64,000 nucleotides of DNA from Escherichia coli (GTDB lineage Bacteria > Pseudomonadota > Gammaproteobacteria > Enterobacterales > Enterobacteriaceae). A program made the translations under genes and the position numbers. The notes below the pieces were generated by a model. It searched no databases and was not told the origin of the DNA. It saw only the letters and a program-made list of their open reading frames with translations. The stretch is from assembly GCF_003334765.1 (NCBI RefSeq), contig NZ_QOWT01000010.1, one strand, 5' to 3'. Below, piece after piece: positions 6,735 to 55,050 of this stretch (positions within the stretch are counted from its first letter, which is position 1; every line of letters starts with the position of its first letter).

Positions 6735-6830
6735 TGATGCCGGATGCGATGCTTGACGCGTCTTATCCGGCCTACTAATTCATCCCGAATCGTAGGCCGG
6801 ATAAGGCGGTCACGCCGCATCCGGCAGTCA
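6735..6830. repeat. BIME: two REP palindromic units in inverted orientation
   Basis: gccggatgcg...gcgtcttatccggcctac followed by gtaggccggataaggcg...cgccgcatccggc, between convergent malQ and gntT. Confidence 0.8.
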
Positions 6831-42078: not shown

Positions 42079-42111
42079 TTCACTATTGCTGGCAAATTGC
42101 GCTTTGTTCAT

Positions 42112-42200
42112 GCCGGATGCGGCGTGAACGCCTTATCCGGCCTACAAAGTAATGCACATATTGCAAGGAAATGTAGGCCTGATAAGCGTAGCGCATCAGG
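42112..42200. repeat. BIME: two REP units in inverted orientation
   Basis: gccggatgcggcgtgaacgccttatccggcctac ... gtaggcctgataagcgtagcgcatcaggc downstream of trpS. Confidence 0.8.
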
Positions 42201-42225
42201 CAATTTTGCTTTTATCATCACTCTG

Positions 42226-42250
42226 AAACCGGGGAAACCCGGTTTTTTTA
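42226..42250 (+). terminator. Rho-independent terminator ending the aroK...trpS transcription unit
   Basis: accggg-gaaa-cccggt followed by ttttttt. Confidence 0.75.
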
Positions 42251-42367
42251 TCCTCATTTGCAATAATCCGAAAAAATGTGAAGTGCCTCGCCGTTTCCAC
42301 ATCTCGCTGTTGCGCCTTATCTTCAAATTCCTGAAGATATAAATATTCAATTTACTGAAAATTTATT

Positions 42368-43273
42368 ATGCGTCGAACGTTTATCAAAAAAGAAGGCGTC
42401 GTCATCACGACGCTGGCCCGTTATTTGTTGGGTGAAAAGTGCGGTAATCGATTGAAAACCATAGATGAGCTGGCAAATGAATGCCGTTCATCCGTTGGCC
42501 TGACGCAGGCCGCGTTGAAAACGCTGGAATCAAGCGGAGCGATACGGATTGAACGCCGTGGGCGCAATGGCAGTTATCTGGTCGAGATGGATAACAAAGC
42601 ATTGCTGACTCATGTGGATATCAACAACGTGGTATGTGCAATGCCCTTGCCCTATACCCGTTTGTACGAAGGCCTGGCGAGCGGATTGAAAGCCCAGTTT
42701 GATGGCATTCCTTTTTACTATGCGCACATGCGTGGCGCGGATATTCGCGTGGAGTGTCTGCTTAATGGCGTGTATGACATGGCGGTGGTTTCGCGACTAG
42801 CGGCGGAAAGTTATCTCACGCAAAAAGGCTTATGCCTCGCGCTGGAGTTGGGGCCGCACACCTACGTTGGCGAGCACCAGTTGATTTGCCGTAAAGGCGA
42901 GTCCGCAAACGTGAAGCGCGTGGGGCTGGATAACCGTTCGGCGGATCAGAAAATCATGACCGATGTTTTTTTTGGCGGTAGTGATGTGGAACGAGTCGAT
43001 CTCTCTTATCACGAGAGTTTACAACGCATTGTTAAAGGCGATGTCGATGCGGTGATCTGGAACGTGGTGGCGGAAAACGAACTGACCATGCTGGGATTAG
43101 AGGCGACGCCGCTCACAGACGATCCGCGATTTTTACAGGCCACCGAAGCCGTGGTCCTGACGCGAGTCGATGATTACCCAATGCAACAACTGCTGCGTGC
43201 CGTTGTAGATAAACACGCCCTGCTCGCCCATCAACAACGGGTAGTGAGTGGGGAACAGGAACCGAGTTATTAA
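42368..43273 (+). CDS. yhfZ: YhfZ, putative DNA-binding transcriptional regulator
   Basis: 301-aa ORF MRRTFIKKEGVVITTLARYLLGEKCGNRLKTIDELANECRSSVGLTQ; N-terminal HTH-like segment. Confidence 0.83.
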   Translation: MRRTFIKKEGVVITTLARYLLGEKCGNRLKTIDELANECRSSVGLTQAALKTLESSGAIRIERRGRNGSYLVEMDNKALLTHVDINNVVCAMPLPYTRLYEGLASGLKAQFDGIPFYYAHMRGADIRVECLLNGVYDMAVVSRLAAESYLTQKGLCLALELGPHTYVGEHQLICRKGESANVKRVGLDNRSADQKIMTDVFFGGSDVERVDLSYHESLQRIVKGDVDAVIWNVVAENELTMLGLEATPLTDDPRFLQATEAVVLTRVDDYPMQQLLRAVVDKHALLAHQQRVVSGEQEPSY

Positions 43274-43289
43274 ACGAAAGGCATCTGAT

Positions 43290-43652
43290 ATGGAAACCAG
43301 ACTCAACCTGCTTTGCGAGGCAGGCGTTATTGATAAGGACATCTGCAAAGGCATGATGCAGGTCGTCAACGTACTGGAAACAGAGTGCCATCTGCCGGTG
43401 CGCAGTGAGCAAGGAACGATGGCGATGACACATATGGCGAGTGCACTGATGCGCAGTCGCCGTGGTGAAGAAATAGAGCCGCTGGATAACGAGTTGCTGG
43501 CAGAACTGGCGCAATCCAGCCACTGGCAAGCCGTTGTGCAATTGCATCAGGTGTTGTTGAAGGAATTCGCACTGGAAGTTAACCCGTGTGAAGAAGGCTA
43601 TTTGCTGGCCAACCTTTATGGATTATGGATGGCTGCTAACGAAGAGGTTTGA
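43290..43652 (+). CDS. yhfY: YhfY, small PRD-like protein
   Basis: 120 aa from internal ATG at 43290 (METRLNLLCEAGVIDKDICKGMMQ); ORF track has a 14-codon extension overlapping yhfZ. Confidence 0.78.
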   Translation: METRLNLLCEAGVIDKDICKGMMQVVNVLETECHLPVRSEQGTMAMTHMASALMRSRRGEEIEPLDNELLAELAQSSHWQAVVQLHQVLLKEFALEVNPCEEGYLLANLYGLWMAANEEV

Positions 43653-43730
43653 AGCTCCCGACAAATCCACGTCGCACAACCTAAATATTCAAAAAAATGA
43701 ATATTTAAGGAACAGAAACGAGGCAACAAG

Positions 43731-44894
43731 ATGTTTGTAGAAGCATTGAAACGCCAGAACCCGGCGCTGATTTCCGCCGCACTAAGCCTGTGGCAGCAGG
43801 GCAAGATCGCCCCGGACAGCTGGGTGATCGACGTGGATCAGATACTGGAAAACGGTAAGCGGCTGATTGAGACGGCGCGGCTTTACGGCATTGAACTGTA
43901 TCTGATGACCAAGCAGTTTGGTCGTAATCCGTGGCTGGCGGAAAAATTGCTGGCATTAGGCTACAGCGGCATTGTGGCGGTGGATTACAAAGAGGCGCGA
44001 GTCATGCGCCGCGCTGGTTTGCCTGTGGCGCATCAGGGGCATCTGGTACAAATCCCTTGTCATCAGGTTGCTGACGCCGTTGAACAGGGCACCGACGTCA
44101 TCACCGTGTTTACTCTCGACAAAGCGCGGGAAGTTTCTGCGGCGGCGGTGAAGGCCGGGCGAATCCAGTCTGTGCTGCTTAAAGTTTATAGCGACGATGA
44201 TTTTCTTTATCCGGGCCAGGAGAGCGGTTTTGCCCTCAAGGTGTTGCCGGAGATTGTCGCCGAAATCCAGAATCTGCCAGGGCTGCATTTAGCCGGACTT
44301 ACCCATTTCCCTTGCCTGCTTTGGGATGAGGCTGTCGGAAAAGTTTTGCCGACACCGAATCTTCACACGCTGATACAGGCACGGGATCAACTGGCGAAAT
44401 CTGGTATTGCACTTGAGCAACTGAACGCGCCTTCAGCGACCAGCTGCACTTCGCTGCCATTACTGGCGCAATACGGTGTGACTCATGCCGAACCCGGTCA
44501 TGCGCTGACGGGCACTATTCCGGCAAACCAGCAGGGCGATCAGCCTGAACGTATCGCGATGCTCTGGTTAAGTGAAATCTCCCATCATTTCCGTGGCGAC
44601 AGCTACTGCTACGGCGGCGGTTACTATCGTCGTGGTCATGCGCAACATGCGTTGGTGTTTACGCCAGAAAATCAAAAGATTACTGAAACCAATCTCAAAA
44701 CTGTGGATGACAGCAGTATCGACTACACCCTGCCGCTGGCAGGCGAGTTTCCGGTAAGCAGTGCAGTGGTGCTCTGTTTTCGCACGCAGATTTTTGTCAC
44801 CCGTAGCGATGTGGTGCTGGTGTCCGGTATTCATCGTGGCGAACCGGAAATCGTCGGTCGTTATGACAGTCTTGGAAACTCTCTGGGGGCGTAA
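43731..44894 (+). CDS. yhfX: YhfX, putative PLP-dependent racemase-like (alanine racemase fold) protein
   Basis: 387-aa [46 protein letters not shown]. Confidence 0.83.
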
Positions 44895-46120
44895 TGGCGC
44901 GATTTGTGGTGTTAGTGATTGATAGCTTTGGCGTAGGGGCAATGAAAGATGTCACGCTGGTGCGTCCGCAAGATGCGGGAGCGAATACATGTGGTCACAT
45001 CCTGAGCCAGTTGCCGCATTTGCAGCTACCAACGCTGGAGAAGCTGGGGCTAATCAACGCATTGGGTTATGCGCCAGGCGATATGCAGCCGTCAGATTCC
45101 GCAACCTGGGGCGTGGCAGAGCTGCAACATGAAGGTGGCGATACCTTTATGGGGCATCAGGAAATTTTAGGCACGCGCCCGTTACCGCCGCTGCGGATGC
45201 CTTTTCGCGATGTGATTGACCGTGTTGAGCAGGCATTAGTTTCCGCTGGCTGGCAGGTGGAGCGCCGTGGCGATGATCTGCAATTTCTGTGGGTCAATCA
45301 GGCGGTTGCGATTGGCGATAATCTCGAGGCGGATTTAGGCCAGGTCTATAACATTACCGCCAATCTCTCTGTGATCTCTTTTGACGACGCAATCAAAATT
45401 GGTCGTATCGTGCGTGAGCAGGTACAGGTCGGTCGGGTCATTACATTTGGTGGCCTGTTAACCGACAGTCAACGCATTCTCGATGCCGCAGAAAGCAAAG
45501 AAGGGCGCTTTATTGGTATCAATGCGCCGCGTTCTGGCGCTTATGACAACGGTTTCCAAGTCGTGCATATGGGCTATGGCGTCGATGAAAAAGTGCAGGT
45601 GCCACAAAAACTGTATGAAGCAGGCGTGCCAACCGTGCTGGTGGGTAAGGTGGCAGATATCGTCAACAATCCTTATGGCGTGAGCTGGCAAAATCTGGTG
45701 GATAGCCAGCGGATTATGGATATCACCCTCAACGAATTTAACACCCATCCGACGGCGTTTATTTGCACCAACATTCAGGAAACCGACCTCGCTGGTCATG
45801 CAGAAGACGTCGCACGTTATGCCGAACGTTTGCAGGTCGTTGACCGTAACCTTGCCCGGCTTGTTGAGGCGATGCAGCCAGATGATTGCCTGGTCGTGAT
45901 GGCGGATCACGGCAACGATCCGACCATTGGTCACAGCCACCATACCCGCGAAGTGGTGCCAGTGCTGGTTTATCAGCAAGGGATGATCGCTACGCAGCTC
46001 GGTGTGCGCACCACGCTTTCTGATGTGGGGGCTACCGTGTGTGAATTTTTCCGCGCGCCACCGCCACAAAATGGTCGCTCTTTTCTTTCCTCCCTCCGGT
46101 TTGCAGGAGACACCCTATGA
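44894..46120 (+). CDS. yhfW: YhfW, putative phosphopentomutase-like metalloenzyme
   Basis: 408-aa [23 protein letters not shown]; start overlaps yhfX stop; C-terminal ADHGNDPT motif typical of the alkaline-phosphatase-like mutase superfamily. Confidence 0.83.
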
Positions 46121-46995
46121 GTTTTGATCCGACGGGTTACACCCTCGCCCATGAGCATCTGCATATTGATCTCTCCGGCTTTAAAAACAACGTGGACTGC
46201 CGCCTTGATCAGTATGCGTTCATTTGCCAGGAGATGAACGACCTGATGACCCGGGGCGTGCGTAATGTGATTGAGATGACCAACCGTTACATGGGGCGCA
46301 ATGCGCAATTTATGCTTGATGTAATGCGCGAGACGGGGATCAACGTGGTGGCCTGTACCGGTTATTACCAGGACGCGTTTTTCCCGGAACATGTGGCGAC
46401 CCGCAGCGTGCAGGAACTGGCGCAGGAGATGGTCGATGAAATTGAACAGGGTATCGATGGCACGGAGCTGAAAGCCGGGATCATCGCGGAGATCGGCACC
46501 AGCGAAGGAAAGATTACGCCGCTGGAAGAGAAGGTATTTATTGCCGCTGCGCTGGCGCATAACCAGACCGGACGCCCGATCTCCACGCATACGTCGTTCA
46601 GCACGATGGGGCTGGAGCAACTGGCGTTGCTACAAGCCCACGGGGTTGATCTTTCGCGCGTCACCGTTGGTCACTGCGATCTGAAAGACAACCTCGACAA
46701 CATTTTGAAGATGATCGATCTCGGCGCGTACGTGCAGTTCGACACCATCGGCAAGAACAGTTACTACCCGGACGAAAAGCGTATTGCGATGCTTCATGCG
46801 CTACGCGACCGTGGGTTGCTGAACCGCGTCATGCTGTCGATGGATATTACGCGCCGCTCCCATTTAAAAGCCAACGGTGGTTATGGCTATGACTATTTAC
46901 TAACCACCTTTATTCCGCAATTGCGCCAGTCAGGATTCAGTCAGGCCGATGTGGATGTGATGTTACGTGAAAATCCCTCTCAATTTTTCCAATAA
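46117..46995 (+). CDS. php: Phosphotriesterase homology protein (amidohydrolase superfamily)
   Basis: 292-aa [25 protein letters not shown] (HxH metal-binding motif); 4-nt overlap with yhfW. Confidence 0.9.
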
Positions 46996-47005
46996 GGACA
47001 GACTC

Positions 47006-47359
47006 ATGAAAAAGATTGGCGTTGCAGGCTTACAGCGTGAGCAGATTAAAAAAACTATTGAAGCGACGGCTCCTGGCTGTTTTGAAGTTTTCATTCACAA
47101 CGACATGGAAGCGGCAATGAAGGTGAAATCCGGGCAACTGGATTATTACATCGGCGCGTGTAATACCGGTGCGGGCGCGGCATTGTCGATTGCCATCGCG
47201 GTGATAGGCTATAACAAAAGTTGCACCATTGCCAAACCAGGCATTAAAGCGAAAGACGAGCATATCGCCAAAATGATCGCTGAAGGAAAAGTGGCGTTTG
47301 GCCTTTCCGTTGAGCACGTCGAACACGCGATTCCGATGCTGATTAACCATCTGAAATAA
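47006..47359 (+). CDS. yhfU: YhfU, DUF2620-family protein
   Basis: 117 aa from internal ATG at 47006 (MKKIGVAGLQREQIKKTIEATAPG); ORF track extension overlaps the php 3' end. Confidence 0.78.
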   Translation: MKKIGVAGLQREQIKKTIEATAPGCFEVFIHNDMEAAMKVKSGQLDYYIGACNTGAGAALSIAIAVIGYNKSCTIAKPGIKAKDEHIAKMIAEGKVAFGLSVEHVEHAIPMLINHLK

Positions 47360-47370
47360 AAGGCACGACT

Positions 47371-48675
47371 ATGGATCTGTATATTCAGATTATCGTGGTG
47401 GCGTGCCTGACGGGTATGACATCGCTTCTGGCGCATCGCTCGGCGGCTGTTTTTCATGACGGCATCCGCCCGATCCTGCCGCAACTGATTGAAGGCTATA
47501 TGAACCGTCGCGAGGCGGGGAGTATCGCTTTTGGTCTGAGCATTGGTTTTGTGGCCTCGGTGGGGATCTCTTTTACCCTGAAAACCGGGCTGCTCAACGC
47601 ATGGTTACTCTTTCTTCCTACCGATATCCTCGGCGTCCTGGCGATAAACAGCCTGATGGCGTTTGGTCTTGGCGCTATCTGGGGCGTGTTGATCCTTACT
47701 TGCCTGTTGCCAGTAAACCAGCTGCTGACCGCGCTGCCGGTGGATGTATTAGGTAGCCTGGGGGAATTAAGCTCGCCGGTGGTTTCAGCTTTTGCACTGT
47801 TCCCGCTGGTGGCGATTTTCTACCAGTTTGGCTGGAAGCAAAGTCTGATCGCCGCCGTGGTGGTACTGATGACCCGTGTGGTAGTCGTGCGCTATTTCCC
47901 ACATCTTAACCCTGAATCCATCGAAATCTTTATTGGCATGGTGATGCTGCTGGGGATCGCGATAACTCACGACCTGCGTCATCGTGATGAAAATGACATT
48001 GATGCCAGCGGGCTTTCGGTGTTTGAAGAACGCACGTCACGGATTATCAAAAACTTACCCTATATCGCCATCGTGGGAGCATTGATTGCCGCCGTTGCCA
48101 GCATGAAGATTTTTGCTGGCAGTGAAGTGTCGATCTTCACACTGGAGAAAGCATATTCCGCAGGCGTAACGCCGGAACAATCGCAAACGCTGATTAATCA
48201 GGCGGCTCTGGCAGAATTTATGCGCGGACTGGGGTTTGTGCCGTTGATTGCCACCACCGCGTTAGCAACGGGTGTGTATGCAGTTGCGGGCTTTACCTTT
48301 GTTTATGCGGTGGGCTATCTCTCGCCGAATCCGATGGTTGCAGCGGTATTAGGCGCAGTGGTTATTTCGGCGGAAGTCTTGCTGCTTCGTTCGATCGGCA
48401 AATGGCTGGGACGCTACCCGTCGGTGCGTAATGCGTCGGATAACATCCGTAACGCCATGAATATGCTGATGGAAGTGGCGCTGCTGGTCGGTTCGATTTT
48501 CGCAGCAATTAAGATGGCGGGTTATACCGGATTCTCTATCGCGGTTGCCATTTACTTCCTCAACGAATCCCTGGGCCGTCCGGTACAGAAAATGGCGGCA
48601 CCGGTCGTGGCAGTAATGATCACCGGTATTCTGCTGAATGTTCTTTACTGGCTTGGCCTGTTCGTTCCGGCTTAA
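47371..48675 (+). CDS. yhfT: YhfT, polytopic inner membrane protein (putative transporter)
   Basis: 434-aa ORF MDLYIQIIVVACLTGMTSLLAH; strongly hydrophobic throughout. Confidence 0.85.
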   Translation: MDLYIQIIVVACLTGMTSLLAHRSAAVFHDGIRPILPQLIEGYMNRREAGSIAFGLSIGFVASVGISFTLKTGLLNAWLLFLPTDILGVLAINSLMAFGLGAIWGVLILTCLLPVNQLLTALPVDVLGSLGELSSPVVSAFALFPLVAIFYQFGWKQSLIAAVVVLMTRVVVVRYFPHLNPESIEIFIGMVMLLGIAITHDLRHRDENDIDASGLSVFEERTSRIIKNLPYIAIVGALIAAVASMKIFAGSEVSIFTLEKAYSAGVTPEQSQTLINQAALAEFMRGLGFVPLIATTALATGVYAVAGFTFVYAVGYLSPNPMVAAVLGAVVISAEVLLLRSIGKWLGRYPSVRNASDNIRNAMNMLMEVALLVGSIFAAIKMAGYTGFSIAVAIYFLNESLGRPVQKMAAPVVAVMITGILLNVLYWLGLFVPA

Positions 48676-48686
48676 GGAAGGCACCT

Positions 48687-49772
48687 ATGAAGACGTTTCC
48701 TCTGCAAAGCCTGACGATTATTGAGGCGCAGCAAAAGCAGTTTGCGCTGGTGGATAGCATTTGTCGCCATTTCCCCGGCAGCGAGTTTCTTACTGGCGGT
48801 GATTTAGGCTTAACGCCAGGACTGAATCAACCGCGCGTTACCCAGCGTGTGGAACAGGTGCTGGCTGATGCATTTCACGCACAGGCTGCGGCGCTGGTGC
48901 AGGGCGCGGGGACTGGCGCGATTCGCGCCGGGCTGGCGGCTTTGCTCAAACCGGGGCAGCGTCTTCTGGTGCATGACGCGCCTGTTTACCCGACGACACG
49001 GGTTATTATTGAGCAGATGGGGCTGACGCTTATTACTGTTGATTTCAATGACCTGTCGGCACTGAAGCAGGTCGTCGACGAGCAACAACCGGATGCGGCG
49101 CTGGTGCAGCATACGCGCCAGCAGCCGCAGGACAGCTACGTGCTGGCAGATGTGCTGGCAACGTTGCGCGCGGCAGGTGTTCCAGCGTTAACCGATGACA
49201 ACTATGCGGTGATGAAGGTGGCTCGAATCGGCTGTGAATGCGGCGCGAATGTCTCGACATTTTCCTGCTTCAAGCTATTTGGGCCAGAGGGTGTTGGTGC
49301 AGTGGTCGGCGATGCTGATGTTATCAACCGTATTCGCGCCACGCTTTACTCCGGCGGTAGCCAGATCCAGGGCGCACAGGCGCTGGAAGTATTGCGTGGT
49401 CTGGTGTTTGCGCCAGTGATGCACGCGGTGCAGGCAGGGGTATCTGAACGGTTGCTGGCTTTGCTTAACGGTGGTGCGGTGCCGGAAGTGAAAAGCGCGG
49501 TGATTGCTAATGCGCAGTCGAAGGTGTTGATTGTCGAGTTTCATCAGCCGATTGCCGCCAGAGTGCTGGAAGAGGCGCAAAAGCGCGGTGCCTTGCCTTA
49601 CCCGGTGGGTGCAGAGTCGAAATATGAAATCCCGCCGCTCTTTTATCGCCTTTCCGGAACGTTTCGCCAGGCGAATCCACAATCAGAACATTGTGCGATT
49701 CGCATTAACCCGAATCGCAGCGGTGAAGAGACGGTGCTGCGGATTTTGCGTGAGAGTATTGCCAGTATTTAA
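48687..49772 (+). CDS. yhfS: YhfS, putative PLP-dependent enzyme (aminotransferase-like fold)
   Basis: 361-aa ORF MKTFPLQSLTIIEAQQKQFALVDSICRHFPGSEFLTGG. Confidence 0.83.
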   Translation: MKTFPLQSLTIIEAQQKQFALVDSICRHFPGSEFLTGGDLGLTPGLNQPRVTQRVEQVLADAFHAQAAALVQGAGTGAIRAGLAALLKPGQRLLVHDAPVYPTTRVIIEQMGLTLITVDFNDLSALKQVVDEQQPDAALVQHTRQQPQDSYVLADVLATLRAAGVPALTDDNYAVMKVARIGCECGANVSTFSCFKLFGPEGVGAVVGDADVINRIRATLYSGGSQIQGAQALEVLRGLVFAPVMHAVQAGVSERLLALLNGGAVPEVKSAVIANAQSKVLIVEFHQPIAARVLEEAQKRGALPYPVGAESKYEIPPLFYRLSGTFRQANPQSEHCAIRINPNRSGEETVLRILRESIASI

Positions 49773-49807
49773 TGCTGGATAGCACCGTCAAGCTAAATTC
49801 CGTACTG

Positions 49808-49860
49808 AACGGTCCCCTCGCCCCTTTGGGGAGAGGGTTAGGGTGAGGGGAACGTACGGG
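49808..49860. repeat. GC-rich imperfect palindrome (REP-related intergenic repeat, family uncertain)
   Basis: ccgtactgaacggtcccctcgcccctttggggagagggttagggtgaggggaacgtacgg; outer arms ccgtac/gtacgg and inner C-rich/G-rich arms. Confidence 0.55.
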
Positions 49861-49885
49861 ATGTAAAATTCAACGCGCCAGCATC

Positions 49886-49922
49886 GCCGGATGCGATGCT
49901 GGCGCATCTTATCCGGCCTACG
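49886..49922. repeat. REP palindromic unit
   Basis: gccggatgcgatgctggcgcatcttatccggcctacg immediately downstream of frlR. Confidence 0.75.
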
Positions 49923-49923
49923 G

Positions 49924-50655
49924 TTAATGTCTTTTATTATCAATAGTTAAGGTGATGCGATTGGCGCGGCAGAAGAGTTCGGAGACGTGCACCGGTTTGT
50001 CATTCTGATCAAAGGCGATTTTGCTGATGCGAAACAACGGTTCGCCCAGTTCGCATTTCAGCCATTTTGCCTGCGGGCGGGTGGCGGCAAAGATATCGAT
50101 GGTCTTTTTGTCGCTGACCACTCGCGTGTCAAAACGCTCCTGAAATAACTGATAGGTGGAGCTTCCTTCGACGTAAATCTCATCAAAGTCAGGATAACGC
50201 GACAGCGGGATCCATGAACTATCAATAAACAGCGGCTCTTGATCGAGATACATCACCCGGCAGAGATGGAACACTTCGCTGTTTCCGGGGATGTTCAGCT
50301 TTTCGCAAAACGGCGCGGCGCTGACCCGTTCCTGTTCGATCACTTTCTCTTTCGTCGCCTTGCCTTGTGAGACGCCAAAATCGGTAAAACCACTGACAGT
50401 AAGCAGGGCGTTTTCAACTTTCTGGCTTTGTACAAAGGTGCCTTTTCCCTGCCAGCGGATCAGTACGCCGTCTGCCACTAAGTCGCTGATGGCTTTGCGA
50501 ATGGTAATGCGGCTGACGTTATATTGTGTACAAAGCTCGTTTTCGGTAGGGATCTGTTGCCCGGCCTGGTAAACCCCCTGCGCGATATCATCCAGCAGTC
50601 GCTGGCGGACGGTAGCGTAGAGGAGTTGATGAGAGTAGCGGTCCGTAGCTGACAT
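49924..50655 (-). CDS. frlR: FrlR, GntR-family repressor of the fructoselysine operon
   Basis: 243 aa from internal ATG at 50655 (MSATDRYSHQLLYATVRQRLLDDIAQGVYQ); HTH NVSRITIRKAISDL; ORF track has a 22-codon extension. Confidence 0.87.
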   Translation of the reverse strand: MSATDRYSHQLLYATVRQRLLDDIAQGVYQAGQQIPTENELCTQYNVSRITIRKAISDLVADGVLIRWQGKGTFVQSQKVENALLTVSGFTDFGVSQGKATKEKVIEQERVSAAPFCEKLNIPGNSEVFHLCRVMYLDQEPLFIDSSWIPLSRYPDFDEIYVEGSSTYQLFQERFDTRVVSDKKTIDIFAATRPQAKWLKCELGEPLFRISKIAFDQNDKPVHVSELFCRANRITLTIDNKRH

Positions 50656-50754
50656 AATCGACCCTGAAATAAAGAATGAATTACTCGGATTATAGGGTCG
50701 TTTTCCGGCAAGTAACAGCACGTTGGCGTGAAGATGCTCACGCCAACGTTATAC

Positions 50755-51540
50755 CTACCAGGCACCGTGGTACTGAATGGTTTTCGCCGCGCACGCCGTT
50801 CCCTGCGCTATCGCCTGCGGTAATGTCATCCCCGCAGACCAGCCGCAAAGGAATCCGGCAATGAACGAATCTCCGGCACCCATGGTGTCGATAACCGTCA
50901 CCGGTTCAGGAGCCTGACGCCAGAACTGCGCGCCATCCCAGGCAATGCTGCCGTTTTCACCCAGCGTGACAATCACTGTTCCTGCGCCACGGGCAACAAT
51001 CGCTTTCATCTTCAGACGCAGCGTTTCGTCTTCTTGCGGTGCGGAGGCAAAGGCAAAATCGAGATGCGGCACCAGTGTCTGCCAGAGCGGGCTGTCCCAC
51101 TTGTCGGAGAAGTCGAAAGCGGTAAGTTTGCCCGCAGCGTGCAGCTGTGGGAATGCGTCTTCCGCATGTCCCCAGATTGCCGCGTGCACAATGTCATACT
51201 GCGCCAGCCAGGCGTAATCCTCTTCACTCAGGGCAAAGTCGGCCATCACGCCTTCGGTGTAGTCGCCAAAAACGCGATCATTGTCGTGCAGTTCCACCTG
51301 AGTTTGTGCGGTAACGCCGTGTTTCGTATGGACATGGCTGATATCGACGCCCATGCGGGCGAGATCCTGCTTCAGCTTTGTGCCGTAGTCATCGTCACCC
51401 ACCCAGGTAATGCATCCCGGCTGTATGCCGTAGCGAGTGCAGTACACCGCCACATTGACCGCATTACCGCCAGAAAACGCTTTATTCAGTTGCGGGTAGA
51501 TATCGACGCAGTTATCGCCGATTGTCGCCAGGGTTTTCAT
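50755..51540 (-). CDS. frlD: Fructoselysine 6-kinase
   Basis: 261-aa [32 protein letters not shown]; PfkB-family motifs. Confidence 0.9.
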
Positions 51541-52367
51541 CTCTCATCCTCCGGCAGCAGCGCGCGAAAGCGTTCCAGCGCCTGGCGGGCATAGAGTCTG
51601 GGCTCGTTCATATACATCGTCACCAGCTCCACCGTACAGTAACCTTCATAGCCCCGCTCAATAATATCGCGCATCAGTTCCCGCAGCGGCATTTTGCCTT
51701 CTCCAGGAATGTAATGCGTGTCGCTGGCCCCGTCGCTGTCGACAATATGCAGATGACGTAATTTATCGCCCAGTTTGTCGAAATAACTCATCACCGGTTC
51801 CGCCTGGACATACGGCGCGCAAATGTCGACCATGCTGAACAGGCGCGGCGAAGGCACCAGCGCCAGCGCATGAAGCACATCATTAGCATTACACACGACG
51901 TTCGATTCATACGGCGTTAACGGTTCGAGGATTAGATCCATGCCGATGTTTTCCGCGTACTCACACAGTTCGCTTAGGTTCTCTGCCAGCCGTCCCCAGA
52001 TAACATTAGGTGGCGTGAGATAGCCCGCGTGGGCCGCGGAAATCAGCGTATAACCCGCGTTCATCTCTTTTGCCATATCCATCGCCAGCTTGATCATGTC
52101 GAGGCTTTCGCGACGCATATGTTCATCGCCCAGCATCATGTTATACGGATAGCCGTTGGTTTCTGGCGTATAGCCGATAATCGGCATCTGATACGTCTGC
52201 GCCAGCGCCTTGATTTGTTTGATGCCGCCCGCTTTTAAGTCCGGCGCGAACGCGTGCGGGCGACCGCCCCAAATTTCGATGCCGTCGTAACCCAGCTCGC
52301 TTGCATCACGAAATGCGTGTTCAATAGGCAGCCGCTGGTGGCCGCAGGTAAACATACCTGTTTTCAT
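51537..52367 (-). CDS. frlC: Fructoselysine 3-epimerase
   Basis: 276 aa from internal ATG at 52367 ([35 protein letters not shown]); ORF track has a 29-codon extension; 4-nt overlap with frlD. Confidence 0.85.
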
Positions 52368-52416
52368 CGGGTAACTCCTTGCGTAAATCCGGCCCGTTGC
52401 CGGGCCGGGAGAGGGA

Positions 52417-53439
52417 TTAATATTCCACCAGACCACCGTAATAGCGGCGTTCATCCGGGTTGTGATCTTTGTAAATAGACAGGTAGTAGCAGAGCCACTC
52501 CATTGGCACGAACATCAGGAACGGTGCCAGCCACGGGTGCAGCCCTTGCGAAATTTCGGCGTAATCGATGACGATCACGTTGTCAGTACGCTGTTTAACA
52601 AAGTTAATGGCGCGTTCGGTGGTGTGGCGACTTTCATCATTGCCGAGCAGGAACAGGAACGGAACGCCCGGTTCGACAATCTCCAGCGGGCCATGGCGGA
52701 ACTCTCCGCTCTCAATCACGCAGCCGTGCGTCCAGGTAAATTCCATCAGCGTTACAATGCCTTCTTTGTAACCCAGCGGACGCAGCGGACCCGCAGCAAC
52801 GGTATAAATCATCGGCCACTGGCTGGCCAGTTCACCAAGCTGGCGGCCTTTTTCTTCCCAGGTGCGTACCAGATGACCGAGCGCATTCGGCAACTGCTTG
52901 AGATCGTTTTTGATCTTGCCGATTTCCGCGTTCGGCGCGAGGCGGGTGATCATCTCCAGCACCACGCTGTAGCAGAGCAGCAGGTGAATTTCCCAGATAC
53001 AGTCGGCCTGATAATCAATGCTAAATTCCGCCGCCGAGGTAATCGGGCTATCCGCGCGTTTGGTGAACGCCGCAGTGAGTGCGCCGCAGGCCCGGCCCAG
53101 CTCCAGCGCTTTGATTACCTCTTCGGTTTTACCGTAGTCAGAAACGCCAATTACTGCGCAACGATCGTCGAGGCGATACGGGGTGTTATCGCAGAACTCC
53201 CAGCCGGAAATGGCGTAGACCTGAAGATCGGAAAAGCGATCCGCCAGATGTTTCGCCGTTTGCGCCGCGTTGAGTGGCGATCCGCAGGCAACGAAATAAA
53301 TACGATCAATGTCGCGCTTCACCATCTCTTCCACGATGGCGTGCACCAGCGGAACGTCATGGCTGAGAACTTTTTCCACTTCCTGAACCATATTTTCGGT
53401 GACCAGAAAGTCCACGGTGCTTTTATCAATATCCAACAT
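52417..53439 (-). CDS. frlB: Fructoselysine-6-phosphate deglycase (SIS domain)
   Basis: 340 aa from internal ATG at 53439 ([21 protein letters not shown]); ORF track has 7 extra codons. Confidence 0.87.
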
Positions 53440-53459
53440 TTTATTTTCTCCAGATAACA

Positions 53460-54848
<1,389 letters not shown>

Positions 54849-55014
54849 TTAAAAGGTAACATGACAATGCATGATGAATATAACAACATATGATGTTATG
54901 TAATGTGGAGGAAGATCACAAAATTTCGCACAGGATCGCGCTGTGGCTAATGGATGTAGTTATCAAATTGAATTTAAAGTGAAAATATTTTTACGGGCGG
55001 GGGCAAGAAGGACA

Positions 55015-55050
55015 TAGAAACAAATACGCCCTCGGAAAATCCAGAGGGCG
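55015..55050 (-). terminator. Probable rho-independent terminator downstream of yhfL
   Basis: On minus: cgccctc-tggattttcc-gagggcg followed by a T-rich stretch. Confidence 0.5.

Follow-up and report, generated by a model that had tools for sequence, protein, structure and literature searches.

What is the GC-rich palindrome in the short gap between the convergent genes yhfS and frlR, and do the palindrome and the REP unit beside it do anything for either gene? The DNA analysed is a 64,000-nucleotide stretch of Escherichia coli (hereafter “the window”), in which an earlier note had described this gap as composite, made up of a palindrome that it could not assign to a named family and a REP. 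Judged by its sequence identity with published members, the palindrome is certainly BoxC, a long-known and already described intergenic repeat of E. coli that also goes by the names of PIT, TMECO and HPG1. The explanation that we favour, with moderate confidence, is that two unrelated, described repeats adjoin here, that BoxC is a structure-prone repeat that has been propagated or retained, and that any local effects of the pair are incidental; we infer that they were not selected for the regulation of yhfS or frlR.

The yhfS/frlR gap

By the ORF list and the RefSeq annotation, the gap measures 151 bp (window 49773-49923). The yhfS CDS precedes it at 48687-49772 on the + strand (an ORF of the window, also present in the RefSeq annotation of the identical locus), and the frlR CDS follows at 49924-50655 on the − strand (RefSeq annotation, MG1655 3504052-3504783; a window position x equals 3554707 minus the MG1655 coordinate). 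BoxC with its flanks matches a K-12 MG1655 assembly at 100% identity, and the DNA of the window is K-12-like E. coli. The gap contains two structured repeats, mutually unrelated, first BoxC and then the REP, which with their stems included fill about 116 of the 151 bp; the earlier description of a gap that is almost entirely repeat, and composite, is thus borne out. The G-rich strand of BoxC falls in the 3′ UTR of yhfS, and the C-rich strand lies downstream in the frlR transcript.

A 51-codon minus-strand ORF at 49788-49943 spans both BoxC and the REP and contains “PLTLTLSPKGRGD”; it should not count as a gene, and the label for the gap should be BoxC plus REP. For the window, the main value of the analysis lies in this kind of annotation hygiene. 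The MG1655 RefSeq table lists no repeat features in the gap, but it lists none for the trpS BIME either, and is thus uninformative on repeat annotation. The promoter scan of the locus returned a single weak match (minus strand, 49791-49764), at the level of shuffled sequence. A CRISPR-like or tandem array was rejected, as the repeat search found no direct repeats within the gap and the BoxC family is dispersed.

Identity of the palindrome

The first element had been described from the letters of the window as an imperfect palindrome of about 55 bp, with nested C-rich and G-rich arms and distinct from REP. The repeat search confirms this description, and the family is BoxC. The reverse complement of window 49803-49854 (52 nt, − strand) equals, base for base, eco:14_BoxC, one of the members in the supplementary FASTA (supplement 69) given for the E. 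coli “BoxC” family by Petrillo et al. 2008 (PMC2267715). On the + strand, the 36 nt at 49815-49850 are TMECO no. 15 of Table 1 in Holder et al. 2015 (PMC4666352), placed there at MG1655 3504892-3504857 and classed as TTA-loop type A-mm, that is, type A with one mismatch. The TMECO pattern taken from the same paper, CCCTCNCCC N3-6 GGGNGAGGG N3 GGGNGAGGG, matches by regular expression at a sole place in the window, 49815-49849 (+), with 49850 being the optional last base of the pattern beyond the span matched. The same 36 nt include the 21-nt HPG1 motif GGGAGAGGGTTAGGGTGAGGG, and the frlR/yhfS copy appears as HPGQ no. 38, a quadruplex motif, in the HPG1 list of Kaplan et al. 2016 (Table 1, PMC5100583), whose authors were apparently unaware of BoxC. 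At the level of the element, there is no difference between the copy described here and BoxC/PIT/TMECO/HPG1: the sequence is identical, the three-block layout and the type-A (TTA loop) one-mismatch variant are the same, and the element is intergenic and multicopy.

BoxC was reportedly first described downstream of envM/fabI. A copy of the family at fabI/ycjD in the published tables (PMC5100583, PMC4666352) supports this indirectly. The naming history leads from BoxC in the 1990s to PIT elements (Hoyne/Maher 2000) and then TMECO (Holder et al. 2015, PMC4666352); with HPG1, BoxC has received four names in thirty years and still lacks an agreed function. In the summary of the Maher laboratory's work given in PMC4666352, BoxC elements block DNA polymerase in vitro; that summary gives promoter and terminator activity as absent, RNA polymerase as unaffected and an effect in vivo as likewise absent. 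Tallying the published coordinates, we found no bias of orientation relative to the transcription of tandem neighbours (three sense, six antisense and several in inverted pairs) or relative to replication (13 leading, 10 lagging).

Architecture and folding of BoxC

The whole palindrome, including its outer stem (TTCCGTAC ... GTACGGGA), extends over 49798-49866 (+), as seen both in the inverted repeats and in the minimum-energy fold. The repeat search resolves it into 26-nt arms at 49798-49823 and 49841-49866, which are 73% complementary, and an outer stem pair at 49794-49805 and 49854-49865. The core, CCCCTCGCCCC-TTT-GGGGAGAGGG-TTA-GGGTGAGGGG at 49814-49850, has a three-block layout on the + strand: a C-arm (CCCCTCGCCCC, 49814-49824) followed by two near-identical G-arms, the first at 49828-49837 (GGGGAGAGGG, fitting the TMECO pattern) and the second at 49841-49850 (GGGTGAGGGG). 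Because the C-arm precedes two near-identical G-arms, a single strand of BoxC can fold back on itself. Pairing of the C-arm with G-arm 1 leaves one G-A mismatch (predicted at −16.7 kcal/mol), and pairing with G-arm 2 leaves one G-T/G-U wobble (predicted at −20.3 kcal/mol). Together, the two G-arms supply four G3 tracts spaced by 3-nt loops. They thereby fit the canonical definition of a G-quadruplex motif (at least 3 G in each of four runs, loops of 1-7 nt) and read GGGG-AGA-GGG-TTA-GGG-TGA-GGGG at 49828-49850.

Three structures are open to BoxC as DNA, namely hairpin, intrastrand purine triplex and G-quadruplex, and in vitro it does form them; as RNA it can form a long hairpin that includes G-U pairs. 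The RNA of the + strand folds at −34.2 kcal/mol (z = −3.5) and that of the − strand at −27.3 kcal/mol (z = −3.4), with 0 of 200 shuffles as good in either case. The + strand fold is stabilised by G-U pairs, as the note had foreseen for the RNA stem. The predicted energies are −12.6 kcal/mol for a quadruplex of the G-part alone vs −23.7 kcal/mol for the best hairpin fold of the core; by this calculation, the hairpin should dominate in RNA unless the C-arm is occupied, and the G-quadruplex was rejected as the dominant RNA fold. A permissive Rfam scan of 49600-50100 assigned no family to BoxC; its miRNA and frameshift-element matches were at chance level (E > 1).

A rival reading, the proposal by Kaplan et al., is that BoxC is a selected switch at the level of DNA, in which transitions between duplex, hairpin, triplex and G-quadruplex would control the transcription of neighbouring genes. 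The canonical quadruplex motif on the G-rich strand fits this proposal, as do the conservation of loop sequences between copies, the ion-dependent CD changes of oligonucleotides, for which a quadruplex-hairpin-duplex switch was proposed (Kaplan et al. 2016, PMC5100583), and the intrastrand triplex found to be stable in vitro by NMR (Holder et al. 2015, PMC4666352). The published CD and NMR data include type A-mm oligonucleotides, and the control oligonucleotide, as printed, departs from the 36-mer of TMECO no. 15 by G-to-C changes alone. When the complementary strand is present, the duplex forms (Holder et al. 2015, PMC4666352). Against the switch, DMS probing in vivo showed no protection and no stable non-B DNA (same study). 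TMECO elements were found to be unbiased in strand, gene class and distance to genes in the same study, and in the published surveys as a whole, the elements show no link with the class, distance or orientation of genes, and promoter and terminator activity were not found. The yhfS/frlR copy, moreover, sits between two 3′ ends, away from a promoter, and its C-arm is present, so the hairpin is predicted to beat the quadruplex by the energies given above. A selected DNA switch is thus, in our judgement, improbable.

Copies across E. coli

In the window, the 37-mer core of BoxC occurs once (with 0 matches in 100 shuffles), which taken alone would fit a GC-rich inverted repeat that arose by chance and belongs to no family. 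The count of copies that had been proposed in the note was made genome-wide with blastn and a 73-nt query, and it shows that the palindrome is not a single-copy sequence: BoxC is present in all 5,426 complete E. coli genomes, with a median of 19 places per genome and a range of 2 to 35; a K-12 MG1655 assembly has 20. The family had been expected to be dispersed, at about 20-35 copies per E. coli genome, and these figures are as expected. With 96,160 places in the 5,426 genomes, with members published verbatim and with 0 of 200 shuffles folding as well, the chance palindrome is hardly conceivable and was rejected.

Five further copies were fetched, from ypfG/tktB, mrcB/hrpB, zntA/tusA, tldD/aaeR and fepB/entC. 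All six copies examined, the one in yhfS/frlR and these five between unrelated gene pairs, are intergenic, and the five have in common an invariant core of about 42 bp and a conserved left flank. BoxC copies are also found in tandem, divergent and intra-operon gaps (table of Kaplan et al. 2016, PMC5100583). Two sites, zntA/tusA and tldD/aaeR, count as fixed, with BoxC in 5,411 or more of the 5,426 genomes. The adk/hemH site is dimorphic, being K-12-like in 2,917 of the 5,426 genomes; no clean empty site was found at adk/hemH, where the BoxC-containing stretch is replaced and not simply absent. At pstA/pstB, a 92-bp BoxC-containing segment, flanked by an 8-bp direct repeat (AACCGTGT), is either present or absent.

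The locus among strains

The K-12 arrangement of the yhfS/frlR locus is found in only 2,953 of the 5,426 genomes. O157:H7 is without a 7.7-kb block from yhfZ to yhfS (window ~42079-49805), and the junction coincides with the left edge of BoxC, so that BoxC and the REP there lie 11 nt downstream of trpS. In ST131 and M18, a 5.2-kb block (49774-55015) comprising BoxC, the REP and frlRDCBA is replaced by 31 nt, with the junction directly after the yhfS stop codon. A further isolate has lost the BoxC core through a 52-bp deletion but keeps ACGGTCCCC and the REP. The block junctions in O157:H7 and in ST131/M18, together with the 52-bp deletion, place BoxC exactly at the seam where two strain-variable gene blocks meet. 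This position agrees with the excess of rearrangement published for TMECO elements, around which sequence change in 56 strains was greater than at control intergenic sites (Holder et al. 2015, PMC4666352).

A rival reading is mobility: BoxC would then be an active or recently active element of the kind of REP doublets or MITEs, mobilised in trans by an enzyme, and the yhfS/frlR copy would have ridden along with the frl block. In favour are the variation in copy number among E. coli genomes, between 2 and 35 places, the dimorphic sites at adk/hemH and pstA/pstB, and the inverted A/B pairs of E. coli, which resemble REP doublets. Likewise, in other phyla, the core is embedded in differing, lineage-specific longer repeats, and a Gracilibacteria lepA gene has two inverted units that are missing from orthologues 94% identical elsewhere. 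The likeness to REPINs and MITEs extends to the distance within inverted BoxC pairs, which is below 50 bp in E. coli, in other proteobacterial assemblies and in the Gracilibacteria lepA, and to the dimorphism of some BoxC sites.

The yhfS/frlR BoxC is, however, a singleton, and terminal inverted repeats, target duplications and a cognate enzyme were not found for it. At this locus, the search for a target duplication and for a clean empty site yielded only block indels and the 52-bp internal deletion, and at the lepA site, terminal inverted repeats and a clear target duplication were not seen either. The direct repeat at pst could as well mean a deletion between direct repeats, and fixation, in 5,411 or more of the 5,426 genomes, is seen for several copies. 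A published BLAST search found no association of TMECO with transposons, phages or plasmids (PMC4666352), and in the genomes analysed here only 366 of the 96,160 places are plasmid-borne. To our knowledge, moreover, no candidate transposase exists for BoxC, which also counts against mobility. On balance, a mobile BoxC seems possible but doubtful.

The REP unit

The second element is a canonical REP in single copy at 49886-49921 (+), with the sequence GCCGGATGCGATGCTGGCGCATCTTATCCGGCCTAC, in which a head (GCCGGATGCG) and a tail (CTTATCCGGCCTAC) enclose a stem seen as an inverted repeat. Both head and tail fit the REP consensus (head GCC[G/T]GATGCG at 49886, tail CTTATC[C/A]GGCCTAC at 49908-49921), and both are common to four other REPs of the window, at 6739, 6792-6825(−), 42112 and 42173(−). 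The stem is imperfect, with 14-nt arms that the repeat search finds to be 86% complementary. Read on the − strand, the unit has the GTAG end that we take to be typical of REPs. The 13 nt upstream of the unit mirror its interior, so that a perfect 13+5+13 palindrome, GCGCCAGCATCGC CGGAT GCGATGCTGGCGC, is formed at 49875-49905. The note's label of a standard REP holds for the head and tail, but the unit is not quite plain, owing to this upstream mirror. As RNA, the palindrome has predicted folds of −31.3 and −33.4 kcal/mol, with z about −5.2 to −5.6, and none of the 200 shuffles folds as well. All four folds, those of BoxC and of the REP palindrome in both orientations, thus beat 200 of 200 shuffles.

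In its head, its stem, its GGCCTAC tail and its intergenic position 3′ of genes, the gap REP is like other members of the REP/BIME class. It differs in being a single unit, not a BIME pair, and in the extension of its 5′ side into the perfect 13-bp palindrome; the gap has one REP, and the mirrored 13 nt upstream are not a second one. Against the Rfam family naRNA4, the REP scores 31.7 bits, below the gathering score of 59.5, and this match reflects only general REP similarity. BoxC and the REP have no sequence in common. We know of no RAYT-type transposase for BoxC.

Transcript ends and Rho

The note had also suggested a look at mapped 3′ ends for yhfS and frlR termination. The curated Term-seq data report no 3′ end within the gap under the published conditions (Adams et al. 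2021), probably because both operons are poorly expressed, but the same study places a Rho-dependent termination region nearby. Its peak, MG1655 3504972 (+), has a Rho score of 3.64 (p = 1.3e-6; supplementary file 2) and corresponds to window 49735 on the − strand, 80 nt beyond BoxC in the frlR-sense RNA; the position is approximate, as it derives from 800-nt comparison windows. In this RNA, C makes up 45-50% of the BoxC stretch and G 5-15%, and a second stretch with more C than G lies between BoxC and the peak. At convergent BoxC loci, with seven transcripts per orientation, Rho regions lie downstream in five of seven cases where BoxC is read in the C-rich sense vs two of seven in the G-rich sense; with so few loci, this difference is a trend and not significant.

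Outside the gap, one curated 3′ end falls at a BoxC copy. It is located downstream of ppiC, at MG1655 3959467(−), 4 nt past the hairpin of C-arm and G-arm 1, and the orientation of BoxC there is that of the yhfS/frlR copy in the yhfS mRNA. At the terminator hairpin neighbouring the ppiC copy, the 3′ end is likewise 4 nt past the foot. An end 4 nt past the BoxC hairpin is the signature of exonuclease trimming to a stable hairpin. REP and other 3′ hairpins are documented barriers to exonucleases after Rho termination, protecting mRNA 3′ ends. As the yhfS/frlR gap is without a curated Term-seq 3′ end, a barrier role for the copy there is argued by analogy with these cases.

Could the two elements have been selected together to stop transcription in both directions, and thus to insulate the convergent yhf and frl operons from each other? 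The hairpins are very stable on both strands, a short T-run follows the REP palindrome on the − strand, and the Rho termination region is found just beyond. Neither hairpin, however, has a proper U-tract. The scan for intrinsic terminators found none on the + strand; on the − strand, the 13+5+13 palindrome is followed by GTTGAATTTTAC, giving a weak terminator-like site for frlR (stem 49886-49871, tail AATTTTACAT), and this sole match is at the shuffle level (1 found vs 0.7 expected). Since the Rho peak is past both elements, frlR-sense transcription passes through BoxC and the REP. The same two repeats, moreover, stand after trpS in O157:H7, and BoxC is found in tandem, divergent and intra-operon gaps, so that a role specific to the yhfS/frlR pair is disfavoured. 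A selected stop between the two operons is very unlikely.

Local effects of the two repeats

If, as we prefer to think, BoxC and the REP are propagated repeats with incidental effects, these effects would differ between the two transcripts. In the yhfS-sense RNA, 3′-to-5′ exonucleases would be barred by two hairpins, that of BoxC followed by that of the REP, which would leave a stable 3′ end. In the frlR-sense RNA, for which a hairpin barrier at the mRNA 3′ end is likewise envisaged, the REP palindrome precedes BoxC, and BoxC would present a C-rich, G-poor tract that may help to load Rho, which would stop frlR-sense transcription about 80 nt past BoxC, within the antisense of yhfS. At the level of DNA, BoxC would mark a fragile seam between the strain-variable gene blocks.

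The propagated-repeat reading is favoured by the presence of BoxC in every complete E. coli genome, by its location between unrelated gene pairs and by the published lack of bias in strand, gene class and distance. Against it stand the earlier work summarised by Holder et al., in which terminator activity and an effect on RNA polymerase were absent, and the DMS probing in vivo. The main fact outside this propagated-repeat reading is the conservation of the BoxC core, both between copies and across phyla, which is tighter than would be expected of a purely neutral repeat and leaves room for a function or for an active spreading mechanism. Two points of the present locus, the position on the seam and the Rho peak 80 nt beyond, we did not find in the BoxC/PIT/TMECO/HPG1 papers. 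The seams of gene blocks, the RNA 3′ ends and Rho regions at or near copies, and the core outside Proteobacteria are three handles by which a function of BoxC could become testable.

The BoxC core in other bacteria

The spread of the BoxC core beyond Proteobacteria may be new; the TMECO pattern had been reported from 262 proteobacterial genomes (Holder et al. 2015, PMC4666352). An exact scan of 100,044 species genomes for GGGAGAGGGNNNGGGTGAGGG, in which the C-arm was not required, found at least 120 stretches in at least about 16 assembled genomes. That the BoxC/TMECO core is a three-block module found across bacteria and mobile now or until recently is, in our view, unlikely. If it were so, a widely shared process would have to spread or regenerate the exact structure, for example a template switch in replication or an enzyme with single-stranded hairpins as its substrate, and the E. 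coli BoxC might have orientation-dependent effects in RNA, as a hairpin barrier one way and a Rho loading tract the other. The occurrences across phyla and inside genes are the only part of the analysis that is possibly worth further work.

Among the matches listed, multicopy sets come from assemblies that carry the labels alpha-, gamma- and delta-Proteobacteria, Verrucomicrobia, Armatimonadota and Candidatus Gracilibacteria, whereas the one labelled Nitrospirales has a single copy. Of the 141 matches listed, 84 contain the strict TMECO pattern; most of the others listed have a C-arm with a longer loop, by visual inspection. The flanks of the core, again among the matches listed, are conserved within a genome and differ between genomes. 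Avoidance of long open frames by the units is the rule in most lineages (e.g., 5 of 30 units inside vs a fraction of 0.73 for random positions). A Gracilibacteria genome of 28% GC shows no such avoidance, with 12 of 20 units inside long open frames vs 0.53 at random.

This genome reads TGA as sense, with 20 in-frame TGA codons in its lepA, and it was translated with genetic code 25 (TGA = glycine). A candidate second insert, in the isoleucyl-tRNA synthetase gene of Gracilibacteria, aligned ambiguously with a solved structure, and the in-frame claim is limited to lepA. In that gene, two inverted BoxC-like units lie in frame between domains I and II. Comparison of the lepA site with the DNA of an unoccupied orthologue showed no clear target duplication; orthologues 94% identical elsewhere are without the segments SVPHPNPLPEGEGEYG and TLGRGAGGEG. 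For this one Gracilibacteria genome alone, there is a likeness to the Rickettsia palindromic elements (RPE), in that BoxC-like units are in frame in a housekeeping gene and at surface-loop positions; the E. coli BoxC, in contrast, is strictly intergenic, and the sequences are unrelated to RPEs. A solved LepA aligns on both sides of a 44-residue stretch of the Gracilibacteria protein, where the solved protein has 5 residues.

Strain variation at BoxC loci

The gap between yhfS and frlR is the meeting point of two strain-variable gene blocks (window 42079–49805 and 49774–55015; compared stretches L128, L129, and L130), and the arrangement of K-12, yhfS–BoxC–REP–frlR, is found in only 2,953 of the 5,426 complete E. 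coli genomes searched. O157:H7 lacks the 7.7 kb of yhfZ–yhfS (window 42079–49805), and the junction coincides with BoxC's left edge. In ST131 and M18 the missing stretch is 5.2 kb long (window 49774–55015) and comprises frlRDCBA, BoxC, and the REP; 31 nt stand in its place. The isolate NZ_CM182088.1 has lost the BoxC core (TCGCC...AAAAT) through a 52-bp deletion (L131, 701–807), beside which ACGGTCCCC and the REP are retained, and its upstream flank has an 8-bp insertion as well. Separately, in AST19, another strain, the 3′ part of yhfS carries an insertion of 44 bp, and the gene is annotated as frameshifted (L132, 501–1095).

Within the pst operon, a 92-bp BoxC-containing segment lies between pstA and pstB in K-12 and is absent from strain N61 (L134, 298–520, versus L137, 299–429). 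K-12 has three copies of the direct repeat AACCGTGT there and N61 has one, a pattern which, judged from the sequences, could reflect either target duplication or deletion between repeats.

The REP and a spurious reading frame

The 13-nt extension that completes a perfect REP palindrome (window 49875–49905) is particular to the yhfS/frlR locus. The palindrome stem of O157:H7 (L128) differs from that of the window by two substitutions, both of which keep G-T/G-U pairs on the plus strand; C-A mismatches are expected on the minus strand. Two BIME-like REP pairs lie elsewhere in the window, one near 6.7 kb (window 6739–6825) and one immediately after trpS, where the yhfZ–yhfS block has its other edge (window 42112–42200). 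The 51-codon ORF running over both repeats (window 49788–49943, minus strand) contains “PLTLTLSPKGRGD,” the translation of the C-rich strand of BoxC; as a repeat artefact, this ORF should not be annotated as a gene.

An RNA 3′ end at the ppiC copy

Downstream of ppiC, a Term-seq 3′ end, 3959467(−), falls within a BoxC copy (L140, MG1655 3959400–3959600; Adams et al., 2021), 4 nt past the hairpin formed by the C-arm and G-arm 1. BoxC RNA hairpins, as in this case, therefore set stable 3′ ends in vivo.

BoxC-like cores in other phyla

The TMECO/BoxC pattern has been described in published work from Proteobacteria only (PMC4666352). The exact core GGGAGAGGGNNNGGGTGAGGG occurs in at least about 16 genomes, the phylum names being the labels of assembled genomes. 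Among the matches listed (L008–L127), it is multicopy in alpha-, gamma-, and delta-Proteobacteria, Verrucomicrobia, Armatimonadota, and Gracilibacteria, and single copy in a Nitrospirales-labelled assembled genome; in most of these copies, the core is preceded by a CCCTC[T/G]CCC arm. The unclassified assembled genome GL140_5 holds 30 copies within 263 kb (L009–L036). They belong to a ~90-nt repeat unit with two subfamilies, which have the BoxC-like core in common and differ in their conserved flanks; by their sequence, these units look MITE-like.

One assembled genome labelled Candidatus Gracilibacteria, which has 28% GC and reads TGA as sense, carries BoxC-like units in frame within housekeeping genes (L094; also L088, L091, L093, L095, and L096), an arrangement that resembles the Rickettsia palindromic elements. 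Its lepA (L094, 1220–3167, minus strand; unoccupied orthologue, L139) contains two inverted units, translated as “SVPHPNPLPEGEGEYG” and “TLGRGAGGEG,” segments that are missing from orthologues otherwise 94% identical and likewise from solved LepA structures.
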